DNA of 37,344 bases from Acidimicrobiaceae bacterium (GCA_028344675.1 JAOMBT010000006.1:1-37344), one strand, 5' to 3'; positions 3,346 to 12,525 are shown, numbered from the stretch's first letter. The notes: generated by a model not told the origin, from the letters alone. A program made the numbers and translations.

Positions 3346-5059
3346 CTAAATCCCAGGCTGAGAATAGATCTTTATATATATCATTTTTGCTTAATAAATT
3401 TTTATGATTATCAAATCCAACAAGCTTACCTTTATCCATTACAATAATTTTTTCAGCATTCAATATAGTTTCTAATCTGTGAGCTATAACAATTGAAGTT
3501 TGGTAGTCCAACACTTTGTCAGTTGCTTCAAGGATAGAATTTTCAGATTCAATATCTAGATTTGCAGTAGCTTCATCAAAGACAATAATTTGCCTTCTTG
3601 CAAGAACCGCTCTTAATAATGAAATAAATTGTCTTTCTCCTGCAGATACATTTGAACCTCTTTCTCCAACATTTTGATTTAAGCCTTTTTCATATCTATC
3701 AAACCAGCGAAGAACTCCTATTTCTTCAAGTTCTTTCTCTAATTCAATATTTTTTGGATCTGAATAGATTAAATTATCTCTTATTGTTCCTCTAAATAAA
3801 AAACTTTCTTGAGGTACGTATGCAATATTTTTTCTAGCCCATCTTTGTGTTACGTTTTTGGATGACTCTCCATAAAAGTTTACTTCTCCTTTAGTAGGCA
3901 AATAAAATCTAAGAACTAATTTTGCAATAGTGCTTTTACCAGCTCCTGTTTCTCCAACGATGGCAATTTTTTCACCTTTATTGATTGAGATATTTACATC
4001 ATGTAAAACAGTATCTCTACCATAAGAGAAATCTACATTTTTGAACTCAATTACTTTGTTTGAATCCATTTGCGGTTCAATATCGCCTGTCTTGCTTAGC
4101 ACTTGCTCTTCGTCTAATATTGAAAATACTTTTTTCATAGAAGAGCCAGCCGAACGAAGGACATCGTAGTTAAACGAAAGTTGAATAAGCGGGTCGAAAA
4201 AATAATTTAAATAAAATAATAATGCGACTAACTCACCAACTGATAAAGTTCCTTCATTGATTCTTACAGATGCAAACCAAATGACTACAGCAATAGATGT
4301 AACTCTTGTAATTTCTAGAAAAGGAAAATATATTGCGATATTTTTGGCAGATTGCATATTAGCTTTTAAGTGTTCATCATTTACATTCTTAAACCTTTCA
4401 AATTGAGTTTTTTCATCTGAATAAGCCTGTATAATTCTTACTCCTGAAATTCCTTCCTGAAGAGATGAAAGAACTTGACCAATCCACTCTCTTATTGACC
4501 AATAAGCTTTATCAGCATGACTACGAAATATTCGTGTTGCTATCCCCAGTAAAGGTAAGATCAAAAATGATAGTAATGCTAATTGTGCATCAACTAAAAA
4601 TACAGCAATTGTAGCTCCAAGAATAGTAAGCAGAGAAGTAATGACACTACTGGCACCTTCCCGCGCAAACTCATTTAAGCTTTGCATGTCTGAGGTCATA
4701 CGGGCAACTAATACACCTGTTTTGTTTTTTTCAAAGTAACTTATATCGAGTGAAGATAAATGTCTAAACAGTTTTTCTCTTACGCTTTTAACATATGATT
4801 CACCGACTAAACCAATAGCAAGAAGAGCCTTACTTGTGACAAAATAAAGTAAAACTAATACAATGAAATAATAAAGACTTTGTTCAAGCAAATATGAGTA
4901 ATTTGACTTAAGTACTCCTTCATCAATTCCTCTTGATATTAGTTGAGGGCCAACCATTCTTAAAGCAGATCCAGCCATAGCAATCAAAGAACTTAAAAGA
5001 AAAGCCCTTCTTACCTCAGGCACTAACCTCATTGAACGCAAAAATGTGTTATCTTTCAT
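3338..5059 (-). CDS. ABC exporter, fused TMD+NBD (heterodimer subunit 2)
   Basis: TM domain, Walker A GETGAGKS, signature VSAGERQ, Walker B VFDEAT, AHRL. ATG 5059 (MKDNTF) preferred to the track's 5071. Confidence 0.92.
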   Translation of the reverse strand: MKDNTFLRSMRLVPEVRRAFLLSSLIAMAGSALRMVGPQLISRGIDEGVLKSNYSYLLEQSLYYFIVLVLLYFVTSKALLAIGLVGESYVKSVREKLFRHLSSLDISYFEKNKTGVLVARMTSDMQSLNEFAREGASSVITSLLTILGATIAVFLVDAQLALLSFLILPLLGIATRIFRSHADKAYWSIREWIGQVLSSLQEGISGVRIIQAYSDEKTQFERFKNVNDEHLKANMQSAKNIAIYFPFLEITRVTSIAVVIWFASVRINEGTLSVGELVALLFYLNYFFDPLIQLSFNYDVLRSAGSSMKKVFSILDEEQVLSKTGDIEPQMDSNKVIEFKNVDFSYGRDTVLHDVNISINKGEKIAIVGETGAGKSTIAKLVLRFYLPTKGEVNFYGESSKNVTQRWARKNIAYVPQESFLFRGTIRDNLIYSDPKNIELEKELEEIGVLRWFDRYEKGLNQNVGERGSNVSAGERQFISLLRAVLARRQIIVFDEATANLDIESENSILEATDKVLDYQTSIVIAHRLETILNAEKIIVMDKGKLVGFDNHKNLLSKNDIYKDLFSAWDLVN

Positions 5060-6815
5060 TTTTGAAACCACTCGTCTGACTTTCTAAGAATAAAGATTTA
5101 TAACTTTCAATTTCCTCTATTAATTTTGTGTGATTACCCTGACCTCGTACTTTTCCATTTTCAAGAAAAATAACCTCATCACAGAGCTCAATTGTTGGGA
5201 CTCTATTCGTAATTATTAATGTAGTCATATTTGACATGACTTTTTTAAGTTGATTTCTAATTTCTTCTTCGGTCGAAGCATCAACAGCAGATAGAGCGTC
5301 ATCAAGTATTAAAATTCTTGGTTTGCGTAATATTGCTCTAGCTAAAGCAATTCGTTGTCTCTGACCTCCTGAAAGACCAAATCCCCTTTCTCCAACTTTA
5401 GTTTCATATGATTCAGGTAACTGAGCTATAAATTCATGAGCTCTTGCAATAAGTGCGGCATTTTCAATTTGCTGTTGTGTAGCTTTATCCGAGCCAAGAG
5501 AAATATTATCTTTAGCTGAATTGGAAAATAAAAAGCTTTCTTCAAAAGCGAGACTTACCTGGGATCTTAATTCATCAAGTTTTACATTGTGAATATCTAC
5601 TCCATCTATTTCAATTTTTCCTGATTCAATATCATAAAGCCTTGGAAGCAAATAAGCTAAAGTTGATTTTCCAGAACCAGTAGATCCAACAATAGCAACT
5701 GTTTTCTTTCCATCAATCTCAAAAGATAAATTGTCAAATATTTTTTCATCACCGTATCTAAAATTAACATTTGAAAATTTTAAACTTCCACTTCCTGTTT
5801 CTGGAAAACTTTCTGATGAATTGCCATCAACAATACTTGGAGTCTCATTAAGTAAGTCTAGAATTCTATTACCTGCAGTGACACTTGACGGTATCTCTGA
5901 CAAGAACCACGCAGTAATTCGTAATGGCCAAAGTAGCAAAAAGACATACTGAGTAAAAGCTATAAAATCACCCAACGTTATAAAATTATTTATAGATAAA
6001 TAGCCTCCAAGAAGTAAGACGAGTAGTGTTATCACCATTGGTATCAATTCAAACATTGGAATAAATTTTGTTCTTAATTGCAAATATTCAAGTGATGAAT
6101 TGTAAATACCGGAGATTGCTGTCTCTACCTTAGACGAAGCTAAATCCTCATTTCCAAAAGCTTTTACAACTCTTATTCCTCCAAGTTGCTCTTCAACTTC
6201 TGTTGTCATCTGAGCTTCAGCTTCTTTAACTCTTAATGAAATTCCTAAGGCTTTTGAAGAAAAATTAGAAGCTAACCATAAGACAGAAGGAATAGATAAA
6301 AGTACCAAGGCGCCCAATGGCAGACTTAAGCTGAGTAAGGTGATGCTTAGAATTATAAGAAGTAATATATTTGCAGAAGCTAATGGAGCAATTGCGTATG
6401 CAAGCCTGACTTGAGAAGCATCGCTTGAAGCCCTTGCCATTAGTTCTCCTGTTGGAACTTTATCATGATATTGAAATGCCAACTTTTGCATGTGTGTAAA
6501 TATTCTATTTCTAATTCCAGCTTCTACATTAAAAGAAACATGCATAGAGAAGTACCTTCTTATACCAATTGATGAAGCACGTAGGTAACCAGCAATCAAC
6601 ATGAATGAAATTAAAATAATCAACATTTGTCTATTTTCTATAACAATTGCATCATCAATAATTCTTTTTATGATGTAAGGCTGAATAACAATCAAAAAAC
6701 ACCAGACCACGGCCGAACCCATTGAAATTAGAAAACTTTTTCTATTTTCTTTTATTCCATCTTTATAAAAGTTAATAGCTTTTTTAAATTCAGGAGTTTT
6801 AAAAATTTTAAACAT
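5049..6815 (-). CDS. ABC exporter, fused TMD+NBD (heterodimer subunit 1, degenerate ATP site)
   Basis: Walker A GSTGSGKS, LSGGQRQR, ILDDALS (catalytic E>D) and TNR in place of the H-switch, as in TmrAB-type heterodimers. Likely start ATG 6815 (MFKIFK). Confidence 0.92.
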   Translation of the reverse strand: MFKIFKTPEFKKAINFYKDGIKENRKSFLISMGSAVVWCFLIVIQPYIIKRIIDDAIVIENRQMLIILISFMLIAGYLRASSIGIRRYFSMHVSFNVEAGIRNRIFTHMQKLAFQYHDKVPTGELMARASSDASQVRLAYAIAPLASANILLLIILSITLLSLSLPLGALVLLSIPSVLWLASNFSSKALGISLRVKEAEAQMTTEVEEQLGGIRVVKAFGNEDLASSKVETAISGIYNSSLEYLQLRTKFIPMFELIPMVITLLVLLLGGYLSINNFITLGDFIAFTQYVFLLLWPLRITAWFLSEIPSSVTAGNRILDLLNETPSIVDGNSSESFPETGSGSLKFSNVNFRYGDEKIFDNLSFEIDGKKTVAIVGSTGSGKSTLAYLLPRLYDIESGKIEIDGVDIHNVKLDELRSQVSLAFEESFLFSNSAKDNISLGSDKATQQQIENAALIARAHEFIAQLPESYETKVGERGFGLSGGQRQRIALARAILRKPRILILDDALSAVDASTEEEIRNQLKKVMSNMTTLIITNRVPTIELCDEVIFLENGKVRGQGNHTKLIEEIESYKSLFLESQTSGFKNER

Positions 6816-6864: not shown

Positions 6865-6882
6865 TTGTGCATTATTTCACAA
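6865..6882. promoter_or_regulatory. palindromic operator TTGTGCA-TTAT-TTCACAA (Rex/CRP-like) upstream of menA-menG
   Basis: One mismatch to the Rex consensus TTGTGAA-N4-TTCACAA; ends 19 nt before the menA ATG, just 5' of a candidate -10 TATTAT (6886-6891). Confidence 0.7.
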
Positions 6883-6901
6883 GCATATTATTGTACTTTC
6901 T

Positions 6902-8419
6902 ATGACAGATGTTTTAGATAAAAAAATAGAACAAGTATTAGATTCAGCTGATCGTATGTTTATTGCTACTAGTGTCGGAGGTAACTCCTCTGGTGCATCA
7001 GTATTTTTTAGTAGAGATGGTGAAGATTTAGTATTCTTCACATTCCATCCAACAAGAAAGGCTGAACAGATTAGGCTAAACCCCCGTGTTCATGTTGTAA
7101 TCTGGCCAAAAGGTCAGGAAGGAATTGAAGGTCTTCAAATTGACGGAGAGTGTTACAAAATAAAAGATGAAGATGAAAAAAAGAAAGCCTACAATCTTGT
7201 ATTAGAAACAACTCATGCATTCAAGGAGTTTATGGAAGATGACTTTCTCATTGAAAATGATGTTGTTGGCTACTACAGAGTTAAACCTACAACAATTAAA
7301 TATGTTAATTTCTATCAAGAAGAAAAATTTGAATGGAAAACTATTCCATCCAATAAAACATCGGCAATAAAGATGGCATTCAAATTGGGGTTAAAAAGAA
7401 TTGGACTCTGGTTAAGGACTATCCGTGCTCCCTTTCTTACAGCTACTTTTGCTCCTATCTTAATTGGTGCTGCTGTAGCTTGGAGCGATCTTAAAGATTC
7501 AGGTTTTGATTTATCCTGGTCATGGAAAATGTTTTGGCTTGTTTTAGCTGGAGCATCATTAGCTCAAGTAGCTACGAATGCATCTAATGATTACTTTGAT
7601 CATACATCAAATGCAGATGAAATAAATAAGGTAGCAAGTCCATTTAATGGTGGGAGTAGGGTAATTCAGGTAGGGCTTATGACACCTGGTCAAGTATTAA
7701 TTACTGCACTTGTTAGCATTGCTGGAACTATAGCAATTGGTCTTTATTTAAATCAACAAATTGGTGGTGGATATTTTGCTAATACTCCAATCTTATGGGC
7801 TGGAATCCTTGGAACATTCCTTGCTCTTGGTTATACAGGTGATCCTGTAAGACTTGGTTACAAAGGGTTTGGTGAAGTAGCAATTGCACTAGGTTTTGGA
7901 CCGGTTATGGTAATGGGAGCACACTACGTACTTACAGCACCAATTCACAATAATATTCTTTCAAGTTGGAACTGGGTTGAGGCCCTAGTTGCCTCTATCC
8001 CAATAGCAATATTGGTAATGCTTATTGTCTGGATAAATCAATTCCAAGATGCTCCATCTGATGCAGCAGTGGGTAAAAATACTTGGGTAGTTAGAACAGC
8101 TGAAGAAGGTGAATGGATGAAGCTAGAGAAGCCAATGAAACTGTATAAGTACTTCATGATTGAATCCTTTATTGCTGTAGCTTTCATTGGGGTGCTGAGT
8201 TTGTTTACAGATATTGGCACAGTTTATGCATTTATAGCCCTTGCTCCATTAGCTCTAGTTTGGAAAGCTTTCAAAATGGCAGATGAGTGGATGATTAAAT
8301 GGAACAACCCTGAGGCAGACAGGCAAAAAGTGCCATATGAGCTCCTACTTGTCAACGTTTCAACAATTGGAATTCATTTCCTTACAGGATTGCTTTTAGC
8401 TGCAGCATATATTTTATAA
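6902..8419 (+). CDS. menA: fusion of a PNPOx-like flavin split-barrel domain and a MenA-type (UbiA family) 1,4-dihydroxy-2-naphthoate prenyltransferase
   Basis: aa ~1-150: FIATS...LVFFTFHPTRKAEQIRLNPRVHVVI...GLQIDG split-barrel pattern. aa ~170-505: RAPFLTAT, NDYFD, GGSRVI, GFGE, INQFQDAPSDAAVGKNT and multiple TM helices. menG follows directly. Confidence 0.85.
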   Translation: MTDVLDKKIEQVLDSADRMFIATSVGGNSSGASVFFSRDGEDLVFFTFHPTRKAEQIRLNPRVHVVIWPKGQEGIEGLQIDGECYKIKDEDEKKKAYNLVLETTHAFKEFMEDDFLIENDVVGYYRVKPTTIKYVNFYQEEKFEWKTIPSNKTSAIKMAFKLGLKRIGLWLRTIRAPFLTATFAPILIGAAVAWSDLKDSGFDLSWSWKMFWLVLAGASLAQVATNASNDYFDHTSNADEINKVASPFNGGSRVIQVGLMTPGQVLITALVSIAGTIAIGLYLNQQIGGGYFANTPILWAGILGTFLALGYTGDPVRLGYKGFGEVAIALGFGPVMVMGAHYVLTAPIHNNILSSWNWVEALVASIPIAILVMLIVWINQFQDAPSDAAVGKNTWVVRTAEEGEWMKLEKPMKLYKYFMIESFIAVAFIGVLSLFTDIGTVYAFIALAPLALVWKAFKMADEWMIKWNNPEADRQKVPYELLLVNVSTIGIHFLTGLLLAAAYIL

Positions 8420-9043
8420 TTGCCTGAATCAGCAAATTTTTCAAATATTTACAAATTTTACGATTTAATTAATACGGTTCTTACACTTGGTTTTGATAAA
8501 TCTTGGAGAAGTAAAGCAGCAAATAATCTTACTGGGACTTCAGTACTAGATTTAGGAAGTGGAACTGGTGCTGCTTTTGCACAGTTGACAGATTATGAAA
8601 CTACAGCTTTGGACCCAGATAAAAAGATGTTGGAATTAAATATATTTGAAAATAAAGTTCTAGGTACTGCTGAAAAATTACCTTTTGAAGACAAAAGCTT
8701 TGACAATATATTTTGTAGTTTTGTCTGGAGAAATATATCCGATACAGATAAAGCACTTGGTGAAATATACAGAGTCTTAAAACCTGGAGGAAAGTTTGTT
8801 CTACTTGATATGACAAGACCGAAAAATTCAATATTAAAAATACTACATAAGATTGGGTCATTCAAAATACTGCATCTTATTGGTCTTTTAACATTTAATT
8901 TAAAAGAGTATAGATTTCTATATAGATCTCTAGACTTTTATCCCCAACCTGAAAATCACCTCAAGATGGATAATTTTATAAATATAAATATTGAGAGAAT
9001 GGGGTTGTTTGGTTTTGTTTACTTGGCAGTATTTACAAAATAG
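8420..9043 (+). CDS. menG: demethylmenaquinone methyltransferase (UbiE/MenG family)
   Basis: YDLINTVLTLGFDKSWR, VLDLGSGTG, LPFEDKSFD, EIYRVLKPGG. The TTG start abuts the menA TAA. Confidence 0.82.
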   Translation: MPESANFSNIYKFYDLINTVLTLGFDKSWRSKAANNLTGTSVLDLGSGTGAAFAQLTDYETTALDPDKKMLELNIFENKVLGTAEKLPFEDKSFDNIFCSFVWRNISDTDKALGEIYRVLKPGGKFVLLDMTRPKNSILKILHKIGSFKILHLIGLLTFNLKEYRFLYRSLDFYPQPENHLKMDNFININIERMGLFGFVYLAVFTK

Positions 9044-9065
9044 ATAATTTTTTAAATATATAAAT

Positions 9066-9692
9066 TTACTGATTGGCTAAAGCTACAAGCAATTGTCCGA
9101 CTTGATCTTGTGGTAAGTTTCCACTTCTTCTTGCAACAACTTTTAAATCTTTATCTAAAAACACCCAGTATGGAAAAGAGTTGACGCCATAAGCAGTACC
9201 GATATCTCTATCTAAATCATAAATCTGAGTTTCTGACCAGCCTTCTCTTTCTAGCCAATCATGTGGTGGGTAATTGTCTCTTGATCTATCAATTGATGTA
9301 GCTACGGCAATAATTTCTACACCCTCTGGAACACCAATAATGTCAATATACTCTTGCATAACTGGAACTTCTTTCTGGCAGTATCCACACCAGTGTGCTA
9401 AAAACAAAAGAGCTTTTGCATTACCATTTTTTTCTAGAGTGACTATCTCAGAGTTTTCATTTGGCCCTGAAAATATTGGTGCATCAAGACCTCTTGCAAC
9501 ATTATCATCGTTTTCTCCAGAATATTCTGGTAAACCTTGGCCTGTAATCGTAGTCTCACCCTCAGGTAAATTTCCATCTAAGGGTTCATCAACTAAAGAT
9601 ACGCCTATTGCAACAGCCAAACCTACTACAAGAACTACTGATCCTGCGATAATGAAGTTTTTATTCAACTGTTTCCCTTCTCGAAATATCAT
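9066..9692 (-). CDS. membrane-anchored thioredoxin-like thiol-disulfide oxidoreductase (TlpA/DsbE/DsbF-like)
   Basis: N-terminal TM helix, LAHWCGYC (CxxC) and the YGVNSFP cis-Pro loop. Confidence 0.88.
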   Translation of the reverse strand: MIFREGKQLNKNFIIAGSVVLVVGLAVAIGVSLVDEPLDGNLPEGETTITGQGLPEYSGENDDNVARGLDAPIFSGPNENSEIVTLEKNGNAKALLFLAHWCGYCQKEVPVMQEYIDIIGVPEGVEIIAVATSIDRSRDNYPPHDWLEREGWSETQIYDLDRDIGTAYGVNSFPYWVFLDKDLKVVARRSGNLPQDQVGQLLVALANQ

Positions 9693-10179
9693 AATACAAC
9701 AATGCTAGGAATATTGTTAAAAATCCTGTAGATGCCATGACAGGTATGCTAATAAATCCAAAAATATCTACATATTTTAAATTACAAGGAACATCGATTG
9801 CGCAAGAACCTCCTCCACCACCACCATTTTGCAAATATATATGATAAATACCAATACCAACACCAACTGCACTTAAATAACCGACTTTGATTACTGATTT
9901 GTTAAATAAACCGATTATTAAAAATAAAGCTACCGGATACATAAGATAACGTTGATACCAACAAAACTTACATGGAATAAAACCTACAACTTCAGAATAG
10001 ATTATGCTTCCAATTGAAGAAAAGACGGCAACACTAGTTGCAAAATTATAAAACTGGTCATTGATTAATTTTCTAAATCTTTTTTTTGTAAATATGAAAT
10101 ACAAAATTAGCGCACTTATGGCCCATGCAACAAAAGTGAAGAAACCAAAAAGTGTATTAAAAAAGATGATTAAATCCAT
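9661..10179 (-). CDS. dsbB: disulfide bond formation protein DsbB/BdbC
   Basis: PCKFCWYQR motif, second Cys pair SCAIDVPC and TM helices. Start set at ATG 10179 because the track's extension crosses the rhodopsin terminator. Confidence 0.88.
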   Translation of the reverse strand: MDLIIFFNTLFGFFTFVAWAISALILYFIFTKKRFRKLINDQFYNFATSVAVFSSIGSIIYSEVVGFIPCKFCWYQRYLMYPVALFLIIGLFNKSVIKVGYLSAVGVGIGIYHIYLQNGGGGGGSCAIDVPCNLKYVDIFGFISIPVMASTGFLTIFLALLYYDISRRETVE

Positions 10180-10194
10180 ATAGAATTTTACCTT

Positions 10195-10230
10195 AAAAAA
10201 AATGATAGGCGGACAAAGCCACCTATCATT
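10195..10230 (-). terminator. intrinsic terminator of the rhodopsin gene
   Basis: Minus strand AATGATAGGTGG-CTTTGT-CCGCCTATCATT (12-bp stem with one G-U pair) followed by a T run, 22 nt after the rhodopsin stop. Confidence 0.85.
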
Positions 10231-10252
10231 AAATTTTTGTTGTTGAAAAGTC

Positions 10253-10912
10253 TTAGACTTTTTCTCCTGATTTGATTCTTGCCATTCCAAGAACTAATAC
10301 ACCAAGACCAACTTTGTTAATAATGTCAGCCACTGTATAAAGTACTTCTCTGATAGCATCAAAATCACCAGCTACTGGAGCTAGATATCCTAAAGGATAT
10401 ATAATCCAGCCAATAAGTATAAGGTTTTTGATTTTCTCAAACTGATCTGCCTCTGCTCCTTTGAGTCCCATTCCTTCTGCTTGAAGGTTTCTCATCAAAT
10501 AAACATATGCAGCCATTGCTACAACAAACCCTACCCAGTATGCATCACTGCCTGCAGCTGATGTCTCACCATAGTATCCGCCACCAATCATTACGACAGC
10601 AGCCAATCCCCAGTTTCTAACTTTTTCGTTATATTCTGCACCCGAAGATGTTACGGCAAGTACCTCTACGAACATTAATGGTACTGTTAAGATCCAGTCA
10701 ACATACCTTAAACCAGTATCATATGATCCACTATCCCAAGATGCTCCCATCTTTTGGTAGTGATACCATGCTATACCAGTTACAAGAGCGGAGATATATA
10801 CTCCTCTTCTGTGTTTTGGATCAACTTCTCTTGATGATGCAAGTAAAAATACTGTACCAGCGAGCATACCCACTGTTGCAACCATAAAGAGTCTATAAGT
10901 AAGTTCAGCCAT
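10253..10912 (-). CDS. microbial rhodopsin, DTE-motif proton pump (marine actinobacterial clade/proteorhodopsin-like)
   Basis: RYVDWILTVPLMFVE gives D-T-E with Met at the PR-105 tuning position (green type); helix-B His in WYHY; retinal Lys in DIINKVGLG; SD AGGAG at 10922-10926. Confidence 0.96.
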   Translation of the reverse strand: MAELTYRLFMVATVGMLAGTVFLLASSREVDPKHRRGVYISALVTGIAWYHYQKMGASWDSGSYDTGLRYVDWILTVPLMFVEVLAVTSSGAEYNEKVRNWGLAAVVMIGGGYYGETSAAGSDAYWVGFVVAMAAYVYLMRNLQAEGMGLKGAEADQFEKIKNLILIGWIIYPLGYLAPVAGDFDAIREVLYTVADIINKVGLGVLVLGMARIKSGEKV

Positions 10913-10942
10913 TTTAGCCTACTCCTTTTGTTTAATATTACT

Positions 10943-10960
10943 TTGTGAATTTAATCACAG
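10943..10960. promoter_or_regulatory. palindromic operator TTGTGAA-TTTA-ATCACAG (perfect TGTGA-N6-TCACA; Rex/CRP-like) upstream of rhodopsin
   Basis: Lies between a candidate minus-strand -10 TAAAAT (10966-10971) and the SD. An extra half-site TTGTGAA is at 10986-10992. Confidence 0.7.
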
Positions 10961-11034
10961 AATATATTTTATTAACTTTGAGATTTTGTGAAGAATTAAA
11001 TAAAAATTTTTTAGAAATTTTTGTAACTTTATTT

Positions 11035-12525
11035 TTAAAGAGTAGTAACTTCTTTTGAAGTGTTTCCCCATTTTTCTAAGTAAGGCTTTAAATTAAATTT
11101 CCTTGCAGCTGAATCAGATGTCATGTATCTAATTTTTCCATATATTTCTCTTTCTGGACCCCATGCTCTGTCATATCTTCCTAAGACCCAGAAAACTCCG
11201 GAGTATGAATTAGGATCTCTTCCATCAAGTGCATATCGATCATTAAGTGTCATCATGTATGACAATGCCATTTGGGGATTAGGAGACCATTCCAGTATTT
11301 TTTTACCCCAAAGCATCCTTAAATAATTTTGAATAACTCCTTCTTCTCTCAACTGGTTTTGTGCTGCATTCCAAATTTCATCATGAGTTTCTGAAAAAGT
11401 TAATTGATCTAAGGAGTAAATATGTCTTCTATCATCTATCGTGTGCTCTTCAAGTGTTTTAACTGCCCACTCAGGTAAAGAAGAATATTGATTATAGTTG
11501 GCTCTTCTAACACACGTATGATACCCCAATTCTCTCCATGTAATTAATTCATCTAGAAAACTATCAAAATTGAGACTTCCACCCCACCATCCCTCTCTTC
11601 TGCCAACTAAATTTGGTTTAATTTGCTCTGGAGACCAAGACTCATGGTTAATTAATTTCTCAAATATTTCATGAGTTGATATATGACCATAGTGTAAATA
11701 GGGAGACATCTTACTACTTGCATTTTTGGATGGGTTGCTACTGTATTGTGCATAATCATTAAAACCATCTTTTAAAAAACTATCAAATTGTTTTGATGCA
11801 TTCTTGTAGCCGCCCTGAATTGAACTAATCTTTACGGTTTTGTCAATATTGAGTGAATTTAAAAATTTATCTATATCTGTATTCTTGAAATCAAATAACG
11901 GCCATTTTTTTAATGTAGAGGAAATCAAATTTTCAGTGAATTTTTTATTCAATCTTGATAATGGGAACTCATCGGGAATCTCTGTTATAAAGTCTTCTAA
12001 ATTTTTATGTAAGTACCGTCTAAAGTCATGTGCTCGTACGTATTCTTTAGGAGAAAGTCGAATGGGAGCTATTCCATTTGAGTCAACTAGTTCATACCTT
12101 GCAGATATTTCACCAGAAGCTTTAACAGTCATTTGGGGAACGAAATATGTAGGATAATCATCAGTAACAACTACTGATGCATTTCTAGCAAGATCTTGGA
12201 GAAGTCCATCTGCTTCGCCTGGAGAGGTCTCAATGAATGGATAGTAATAGGCCATTGTTTTTGATATCTCATCATTCATTTCACTCATTCCATCAAGCAT
12301 GAATTTATGAAAACGTAAACTTGACATTGGATAGTCTAAAATTAAAGGCTCTAATATAACTAATGGTTGAGAAAGCTTATTTGCCCACTCTACTGCTCGT
12401 TGAAGAGCATAGTTATATTTTGTTCTTTTAAAAGCAATAACCCAGTACACAACATATGAGGAGGAATTAATGTCTGGAGTAATTTCTTTTAAAGTAGTTA
12501 CTCGTGAAACAGGTACATTAGTCAT
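11035..12525 (-). CDS. phr: deoxyribodipyrimidine photolyase, class II CPD type
   Basis: YVVYW...R...NYAL, SKMSPYLHYG, DELITWREL, NYLRMLWGKKILEW, DGRDPNSY and GKIRYM are class II signatures. Confidence 0.92.
   Translation of the reverse strand: MTNVPVSRVTTLKEITPDINSSSYVVYWVIAFKRTKYNYALQRAVEWANKLSQPLVILEPLILDYPMSSLRFHKFMLDGMSEMNDEISKTMAYYYPFIETSPGEADGLLQDLARNASVVVTDDYPTYFVPQMTVKASGEISARYELVDSNGIAPIRLSPKEYVRAHDFRRYLHKNLEDFITEIPDEFPLSRLNKKFTENLISSTLKKWPLFDFKNTDIDKFLNSLNIDKTVKISSIQGGYKNASKQFDSFLKDGFNDYAQYSSNPSKNASSKMSPYLHYGHISTHEIFEKLINHESWSPEQIKPNLVGRREGWWGGSLNFDSFLDELITWRELGYHTCVRRANYNQYSSLPEWAVKTLEEHTIDDRRHIYSLDQLTFSETHDEIWNAAQNQLREEGVIQNYLRMLWGKKILEWSPNPQMALSYMMTLNDRYALDGRDPNSYSGVFWVLGRYDRAWGPEREIYGKIRYMTSDSAARKFNLKPYLEKWGNTSKEVTTL

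Follow-up and report, generated by a model that had tools for sequence, protein, structure and literature searches.

Which regulator, if any, acts on the two similar palindromes that precede a quinone operon and a rhodopsin gene in an Acidimicrobiaceae bacterium (GCA_028344675.1, JAOMBT010000006.1:1-37344), and would it switch light-driven proton pumping together with respiratory functions? The stretch of 37,344 nucleotides that was analysed as a whole, referred to below as the window, corresponds to contig C27 in an assembly of 710,810 bases (G000; 30 contigs, ~33% G+C, completeness 70.8%). An earlier note on this DNA had reported the two palindromes and an additional half-site and had attributed them to the redox sensor Rex rather than to CRP; all three elements were read directly from the window at the coordinates listed below, and the comparison with related genomes favours the choice of Rex, with a Rex protein in the lineage, boxes in front of nuo and whiB-like genes, and conservation of both sites. 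We consider it likely that both palindromes are Rex operators and that Rex governs, in these tiny, AT-rich marine actinobacteria, a minimal regulon of about five units, which would be repressed at a low NADH/NAD+ ratio and derepressed jointly; Rex control of the rhodopsin gene appears well supported by the comparison. The elements in question are as follows.

6865-6882, unstranded: putative Rex operator (ROP), TTGTGCATTATTTCACAA, in the 84-nt divergent spacer between an ABC exporter gene and the MenA-like operon
6902-8419, plus strand: PNPOx-like domain fused to a UbiA-family prenyltransferase (MenA-like; Pfam PF01243 and PF01040)
8420-9043, plus strand: UbiE/MenG-family quinone methyltransferase (PF01209), beginning right after the preceding stop, in the same operon
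10253-10912, minus strand: type-1 rhodopsin of the proton-pump type, 219 aa (PF01036, E-value 3.7e-33, 115.3 bits)
10943-10960, unstranded: putative Rex operator in the rhodopsin promoter, CTGTGATTAAATTCACAA in gene orientation, with conserved arms and a variable spacer
10986-10992, unstranded: putative Rex half-site TTGTGAA (TTCACAA when read along the gene), some three turns of the helix upstream from the full box

The first palindrome is located 20 nt 5' of the ATG of the plus-strand operon (6902), and the second, TTGTGAATTTAATCACAG in the window, 31-48 nt upstream of the ATG of the minus-strand rhodopsin gene (10912). Scored against the ROP pattern TTGTGAA-N4-TTCACAA (14 specified bases), they match at 13/14 and 12/14 positions, respectively, while against the core TGTGA-N6-TCACA (10 bases), which is the CRP/GlxR consensus of actinobacteria, the corresponding values are 9/10 (6866-6881) and 10/10 (10944-10959). 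They are the sole matches to the ROP pattern in the window at ≤ 2 mismatches, and the earlier remark that other TTGTGA words lack the second arm holds within the window in both the pattern and the heptamer scans. At the level of the assembly, the only sites that fall (mostly) outside a crude longest-ORF (open reading frame) mask, which leaves 4.2% of the assembly uncovered, are the perfect site at C23:766-783, the one-mismatch site at 6865 and the two-mismatch site at rhodopsin, and their centres lie 27.5, 28.5 and 39.5 nt 5' of a start codon, respectively.

The first site is conserved throughout. The MenA-like gene was identified in all 41 genomes of the family sample (12 of them at least 90% complete), one promoter being lost at a contig end, and the box is present at ≤ 1 mismatch in 40/40 promoters. 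It is letter-for-letter TTGTGCATTATTTCACAA in 37 of these, with diverging flanks, and is kept in this form also in a second genus (G001), where the MenA-like protein is 75% identical.

In the order sample (61 genomes, the order as sampled consisting of one single family) the rhodopsin gene was found in 50 genomes, of which 5 were without a usable locus or had it cut, and among the 45 promoters examined a canonical N4 box (≤ 2 mismatches, both cores intact) was detected in 27, with 3 perfect boxes, 14 with one mismatch and 10 with two; the conservation in relatives that the earlier note had asked for was therefore found at both sites. The nearest relative (G011), with an identical rhodopsin protein and a 96% identical MenA-like protein, and three further close relatives (G027, G033, G052) exhibit a box with ≤ 1 mismatch at the same position in the rhodopsin promoter, and relative to G011 the G000 boxes show at most one base of decay. 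In an alignment of 20 rhodopsin promoters the arms are kept and the 4-nt spacer is variable. In the clade of G000 as well as in G031 and G034 the box follows a conserved TAnnAT block at a distance of 5-6 nt; in G002, G005, G006, G013 and G039 it is found before a -10-like TGCTATATT or ATATTAT, as at the MenA-like promoter; and G016 and G040 possess two perfect boxes, one in each position. Since the box lies after the -10 element in one clade and before it in another, the link between Rex and rhodopsin would have been kept through promoter turnover, and this apparent survival through promoter rearrangement is the strongest comparative argument for a function of the site.

The pattern search was extended to ten genomes, with site totals taken from nine of them (G013 omitted). 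It revealed 43 sites at ≤ 1 mismatch, 39 of which precede five units: the MenA-like/MenG-like pair, rhodopsin, the nuoA operon, a gene of the whiB type and an ORF for a Cys-rich protein of 64 aa. Gene context confirmed 34 of these assignments, whereas the other 5 were made only from an identical 18-mer or from the position beside rex. The four remaining sites are either coding or at a 3' end (two) or intergenic (two), and apart from these strays no box at ≤ 1 mismatch was found at other units in the nine relatives, the atp and hem promoters not having been examined individually. The tier of two mismatches is mostly noise, with similar totals for a reversed-pattern control. A perfect TTGTGAA-N4-TTCACAA was present in 4/4 rex loci first examined (directly before nuoA in G014), and a perfect box was located 22.5-25.5 nt upstream of nuoA in the 8 genomes whose gene context was inspected. 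The boxed operon of G014 runs from nuoA, nuoB, nuoC and nuoD on to nuoE, nuoF and nuoG, hence it encodes the NADH-oxidising complex I and not a truncated paralogue. The whiB-like gene (PF02467), divergent from a GDPD gene, has a perfect box in 8 genomes as well. At both nuoA and whiB the arms are perfect and the four spacer bases differ between species, and this combination is the signature of a site for a dimeric protein.

A few observations concern individual members of this group. The 64-aa Cys-rich ORF (MTDGLK..., with C-x4-C ... C-x2-H) is encoded on the minus strand of contig C23 of G000 (L009:553-747), 27.5 nt downstream of the assembly's only perfect box (L009:766-783); it is 95-100% identical in five relatives, always with the same box and the spacer TATA, and it gave no Pfam, NCBIfam or PDB match, while its Atlas clusters are unnamed, one of them mostly viral. 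A second nuoA-D cluster of G000 (C4:13071-15567), 31-50% identical to the boxed copy of the relatives, has no box nearby at ≤ 3 mismatches and matches the published truncated, possibly F420-linked complex I. An intergenic one-mismatch box in G018:C8 (L156:986-1003) lies right after TATAAT and 14 nt before a 198-aa CxxC ORF, which may be a species-specific extra Rex target. Another one-mismatch box in G002:C2 (L153:924-941) lies between convergent ORFs at a gene's 3' end, not at a promoter, and a second TGTGA...TCACA-like repeat follows 13 nt further on.

The regulator itself is encoded in the lineage. The profile PF06971 identified rex in 35/41 family genomes, including G011, and in 11 of the 12 high-quality ones; in relatives, rex lies ~1.45 kb from nuoA. 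The protein from G014 matches the NCBIfam Rex model NF003992 with 278.5 bits (cut-off 226), comprises the winged-helix (PF06971) and Rossmann (PF02629) domains, and can be aligned along its entire sequence with Rex proteins of known structure (E-values from 4.7e-46 to 7e-32).

Several results weigh against this reading or narrow its reach. By number alone the sites do not stand out: the window contains two matches at ≤ 2 mismatches versus 0.53 expected, a count reached in 9 of 100 shuffles, and 12 copies of the heptamer TTGTGAA versus 11.4 expected, while the whole assembly contains 1, 1 and 10 sites at 0, 1 and 2 mismatches versus 0, 0.53 and 7.7 in 30 order-3 Markov simulations of the assembly. 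Taken alone, the counts do not exceed chance for either the window or the genome; what is non-random is the placement and the conservation. The relatives in which that conservation was observed are related genomes and not independent samples. The rhodopsin site of G000 carries two mismatches, one at the outermost base of one arm and one right beside the TGTGA core in the opposite arm. In 16/45 rhodopsin promoters, all from one clade, the arms are spaced by N3 and not N4 (TGTGAACGTTTCACA), and such sites may be bound by Rex poorly or not at all; another 2/45 (G020, G021) lack a box, although both genomes possess rex. Outside this family, 15 rhodopsin loci of the class were scanned and none exhibits a box at ≤ 3 mismatches, therefore the link between Rex and rhodopsin is lineage-specific; Rex control of rhodopsin as a class-wide trait was rejected on these loci, the presence of rex in their genomes not having been checked. 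No canonical box at ≤ 3 mismatches was found within 110 nt before rex in 4 loci, and on this ground autoregulation of Rex was rejected. Of the respiratory targets that the earlier note had expected, nuo is indeed boxed in the relatives (as is the whiB-like gene), while cyd was not found in the 5 genomes searched. A scan with the sigma-70 consensus returned no promoter meeting its criteria at either the MenA-like or the rhodopsin site; it is conserved -10-like hexamers beside the boxes that speak for the earlier proposal that these may sit on core promoters. Finally, rex was not found in the G000 assembly, and the regulator predicted by the earlier note is thus documented for the family and not for the very genome from which the window comes.

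The clade with the N3 spacing deserves a separate description. Its operator is a 7-3-7 palindrome, (T/A)TGTGAA-CGT-TTCACA(A/T), found for instance in G014:C2 upstream of 97353, and it is preceded by an extended -10-like TGGTACATT. In the 16 genomes of this clade (clade B) TGTGAACGTTTCACA is invariant while its flanks vary, and the palindrome may represent a weakened or retuned operator.

The name 'menA' is a best-match name only, as judged from the profile scores. The MenA models are the best NCBIfam matches of the prenyltransferase, yet they remain under their cut-offs (NF004751: 110.5 versus 264 bits, TIGR00751: 77.5 versus 102.15), and the methyltransferase scores 128.7 bits against TIGR01934, under the cut-off of 158.35; the UbiA family as such (PF01040) is matched with 88 bits versus a cut-off of 34.2. 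MqnA/D of the futalosine route (PF02621) were found in 0/5 genomes, and no MenD (TIGR00173) over the cut-off was found in 5/5 genomes, the other men genes being outside this search; the aromatic head group may be scavenged, or it may be something other than 1,4-dihydroxy-2-naphthoate (DHNA). The presence of an N-terminal PNPOx-like (FMN-binding split-barrel) domain on a MenA-like prenyltransferase is unusual.

Could the palindromes be explained without Rex? They might be core-promoter elements or sites of some other factor, with TTGTGN serving as the -35 element and the resemblance to the ROP being incidental, at least at rhodopsin. At the MenA-like promoter the left arm is indeed at the place of a -35 element and the whole 18-mer including the spacer is invariant, TTCACA agrees with TTGACA in 5 of 6 positions, and 16 rhodopsin sites are conserved despite a spacing that is not that of Rex. 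The element, however, has the two-fold symmetry of a palindrome, and its spacer varies at nuoA, whiB and rhodopsin; it is found upstream of the -10 hexamer in some clades and downstream in others, unlike a fixed promoter element, and within a genome the same 14 specified bases are met at only some five units. We regard this explanation as unlikely, if the least unlikely of the alternatives. Less probable again is that only the site of the quinone operon works and that the G000 rhodopsin site is a chance or decaying match, as could be argued from its two mismatches (about 8 such sites per genome are expected by chance), from the two relatives without a box and from the 16 with altered spacing. 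A match at two mismatches in a spacer of 122 nt would have a probability of ~0.001, according to the rate in the genome-wide simulations, and neither the better boxes at the same position in G011, G027, G033 and G052 nor the conserved arm columns of the 20 promoters and the perfect boxes of more distant clades would be expected from chance.

The absence of rex from G000 invites the suggestion that this species truly lost the gene and that its boxes are functionless relics, the more so as five other family genomes are also without a match. All six genomes, G000 included, are incomplete (71-90%), and tblastn searches with rex, the adjacent geranylgeranyl reductase, the MATE gene and dtxR from G014 and G004 found nothing in G000, while the queries for nuoA-D and the whiB-like gene retrieved only paralogues (31-50% identity). 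Since the neighbors of rex are missing too, the whole neighborhood appears to be unassembled in G000, and an assembly gap is the best explanation for the lack of rex; G011, which shares the identical rhodopsin protein, possesses rex, and boxes decayed by no more than one base with respect to G011 do not look like relics, which makes a genuine loss very unlikely. A regulator of the CRP/GlxR/FNR type, responsive to cyclic AMP or oxygen, is the candidate suggested by the fit of both sites to TGTGA-N6-TCACA, complete at rhodopsin and one base short at the MenA-like gene, and the core pentamers and spacing of CRP/GlxR sites do coincide with those of the Rex operator. In contrast to CRP/GlxR sites, the outer TT/AA and the A/T adjacent to the core are conserved here as well, i.e. 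the Rex pattern, and two members of the regulon, nuoA and whiB, are controlled by Rex in other organisms. The cNMP-binding domain of CRP/FNR proteins (PF00027) was found in 0/41 genomes, while control genomes gave matches. HTH_Crp_2 was matched in 34/41 genomes, in 15 over the cut-off, by frames of 228-244 aa; the one match annotated out of 36 has iron-dependent-repressor domains, with DtxR as its best match. On the strength of the missing PF00027 and the DtxR-like nature of the annotated match the CRP/GlxR reading was rejected, and we find it hardly credible.

If the palindromes are Rex operators, as we prefer to think, their position relative to the promoters becomes important. Two hexamers are relevant here.

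6886-6891, plus strand: putative -10 hexamer TATTAT; 39 of 40 promoters have GCRTATTA immediately 3' of the box
10966-10971, minus strand: putative -10 hexamer TAAAAT, from the conserved TAnnAT block that precedes the box by 5-6 nt in the alignment of 20 promoters

The exception to GCRTATTA among the 40 MenA-like promoters is G002. No purine-rich Shine-Dalgarno sequence follows TATTAT, therefore the MenA-like mRNA probably has no leader or only a very short one, and the box would cover the spacer and the -35 region of this promoter. For rhodopsin we infer a transcription start near 10958-10960, so that the box would cover about +1 to +16. In the rhodopsin promoters the upstream TCACAA block, too, is conserved in the clade alignment, often with a second CACAA ~10 nt further.

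Proteins of the Rex family bind DNA in the free or NAD+-bound form and are released from it by NADH. At a low NADH/NAD+ ratio a Rex dimer would accordingly occupy TTGTGAA-N4-TTCACAA, blocking RNA polymerase at the quinone operon from the -35/spacer region and at rhodopsin from the transcription start, in the latter case with the help of the upstream half-site. Accumulation of NADH would remove Rex from the DNA and lift the repression of complex I, quinone synthesis and the light-driven pump at the same time, such that the pump could support the proton-motive force whenever respiration falls behind. A feedback may be imagined in addition, in which the light-driven force slows down complex I, raises the NADH/NAD+ ratio, and thereby drives Rex away and derepresses rhodopsin, complex I and quinone synthesis further; this we consider doubtful. 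If it were true, rhodopsin would be part of an indirect sensor circuit for light and energy in a cell with hardly any regulators. The membrane energy module as a whole would then have a day/night switch that reinforces itself and needs no photoreceptor, and promoters with N3 spacing or without a box would represent natural variants shifted towards constitutive expression.

How does this system compare with those already described? According to a study on S. avermitilis (PMC5355995), nuoA1 and wblE (WhiB family) are experimentally shown Rex targets, and the ROPs are located over the -35/spacer region or just past the start, with half-sites also footprinted by Rex. The lineage studied here shares with Streptomyces (S. 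coelicolor, S. avermitilis) the 18-bp operator, the regulator domains and the nuoA and WhiB-family targets; it also shares the arm variant TTGTGCA, which in S. avermitilis is found at the rex promoter, and the two box placements with accessory half-sites, the placements here being those suggested by the putative -10 hexamers. The putative placements at the MenA-like gene and rhodopsin correspond to those footprinted in Streptomyces and would fit steric repression. Unlike in Streptomyces, the regulon is limited to about five units, among them rhodopsin, the prenyltransferase/methyltransferase pair and the 64-aa protein, there is no canonical box directly before rex (4 loci), the spacers are AT-rich, cytochrome bd was not found (5 genomes), and the stray boxes are not cyd, atp or hem promoters in the contexts read. 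The consensus, including the A/T spacer, is identical to the site of the S. aureus Rex, TTGTGAAW4TTCACAA (PMC2883068), where Rex is a repressor released by NADH, as proposed here; the Firmicutes Rex controls genes of fermentation and anaerobic respiration, in contrast to the respiratory and phototrophic targets proposed here. In its operator, its regulator and two of its targets the system follows the textbook picture of Rex, while the content and the small size of the regulon are new.

G000 probably belongs to 'Ca. Actinomarinales', which PMC7771536 describes as an aerobic photoheterotroph with very little regulatory capacity. In common with that description, we find a proton-pump rhodopsin beside a photolyase, a genome of ~1 Mb with ~33% G+C and very few regulators, and an iron-dependent repressor gene flanked by two nuo clusters; Rex is not mentioned in that paper (0 occurrences). 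In agreement with the expectation of the earlier note that a Rex-controlled rhodopsin had not been described, no paper linking Rex to rhodopsin was found among those listed by full-text searches, the comparative Rex-regulon survey and supplements being outside the coverage of that search.

For the control of rhodopsin in streamlined ocean bacteria, a conserved Rex operator would offer a concrete and testable mechanism, by which light-driven proton pumping would switch with complex I and quinone synthesis via the NADH/NAD+ ratio. With about five units, this would be among the smallest Rex regulons seen, and it would tie the 64-aa Cys-rich protein and the unusual PNPOx-UbiA fusion to respiratory control. 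The natural variants of the operator (N3 spacing, double boxes, loss) could be used for comparisons of metatranscriptomes.

The genes that surround the two sites include the following.

5049-6815, minus strand: divergent ABC exporter, the first of two MsbA-like half-transporter genes (profile matches)
10201-10230, minus strand: intrinsic terminator with a 12-bp stem and a T-run, 23 nt past the rhodopsin stop
11035-12525, minus strand: class-2 photolyase, the upstream neighbor of rhodopsin across a 122-nt spacer

The start of the ABC exporter was assigned to the ATG at 6815 rather than to the far-upstream ATG at 6872, according to the ...AAACAT kept in all relatives. The centre of the box lies ~58 nt upstream of this ATG, and the exporter may be co-regulated. 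The pair of exporter genes was considered as CydDC, a Streptomyces Rex target, and this was rejected: the best matches are MsbA-like, all of them below the cut-off, and cytochrome bd subunit I was found in 0/5 genomes.

The rhodopsin protein exhibits a D..T..E pattern in RYVDWILTVPLMFVE (DWILTVPLMFVE) and a lysine in DIINKVG; we take the former to be the helix C D-T-E type motif of a proton pump and the latter to be the Schiff-base lysine of helix G. The gene has its own terminator, hence it forms a single-gene unit, and together with the conserved promoter-like spacer this makes it look independent of the upstream photolyase and not co-transcribed with it. Here our results differ from PMC7771536, where rhodopsin is called 'likely cotranscribed' with the photolyase, in that the gene has its own promoter-like region, putative operator and terminator. 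RNA contigs from 4 public runs show a high depth over 10203-11007 and a low depth on both flanks; the covered stretch is roughly bounded by the terminator and the promoter, and the contigs are discordant on the end: one stops at 10937, while a second, which carries adapter sequence, stops at 10918. The heptamer AGTTACA (11028-11034), which immediately follows the photolyase stop, is invariant in the 20 aligned promoters and is found also in other clades; it is too distant from the putative rhodopsin -10 hexamer to serve as its -35 element. On the 3' side of the rhodopsin terminator, a DsbB-like gene and a thioredoxin-fold (ResA/DsbE-like) gene follow on the same strand (9066-10200). The TTG start of the DsbB-like ORF at 10290, which would overlap rhodopsin and the terminator, is probably spurious. 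DsbB-type enzymes hand electrons to quinones, and the DsbB-like/ResA-like pair is convergent with the quinone operon.

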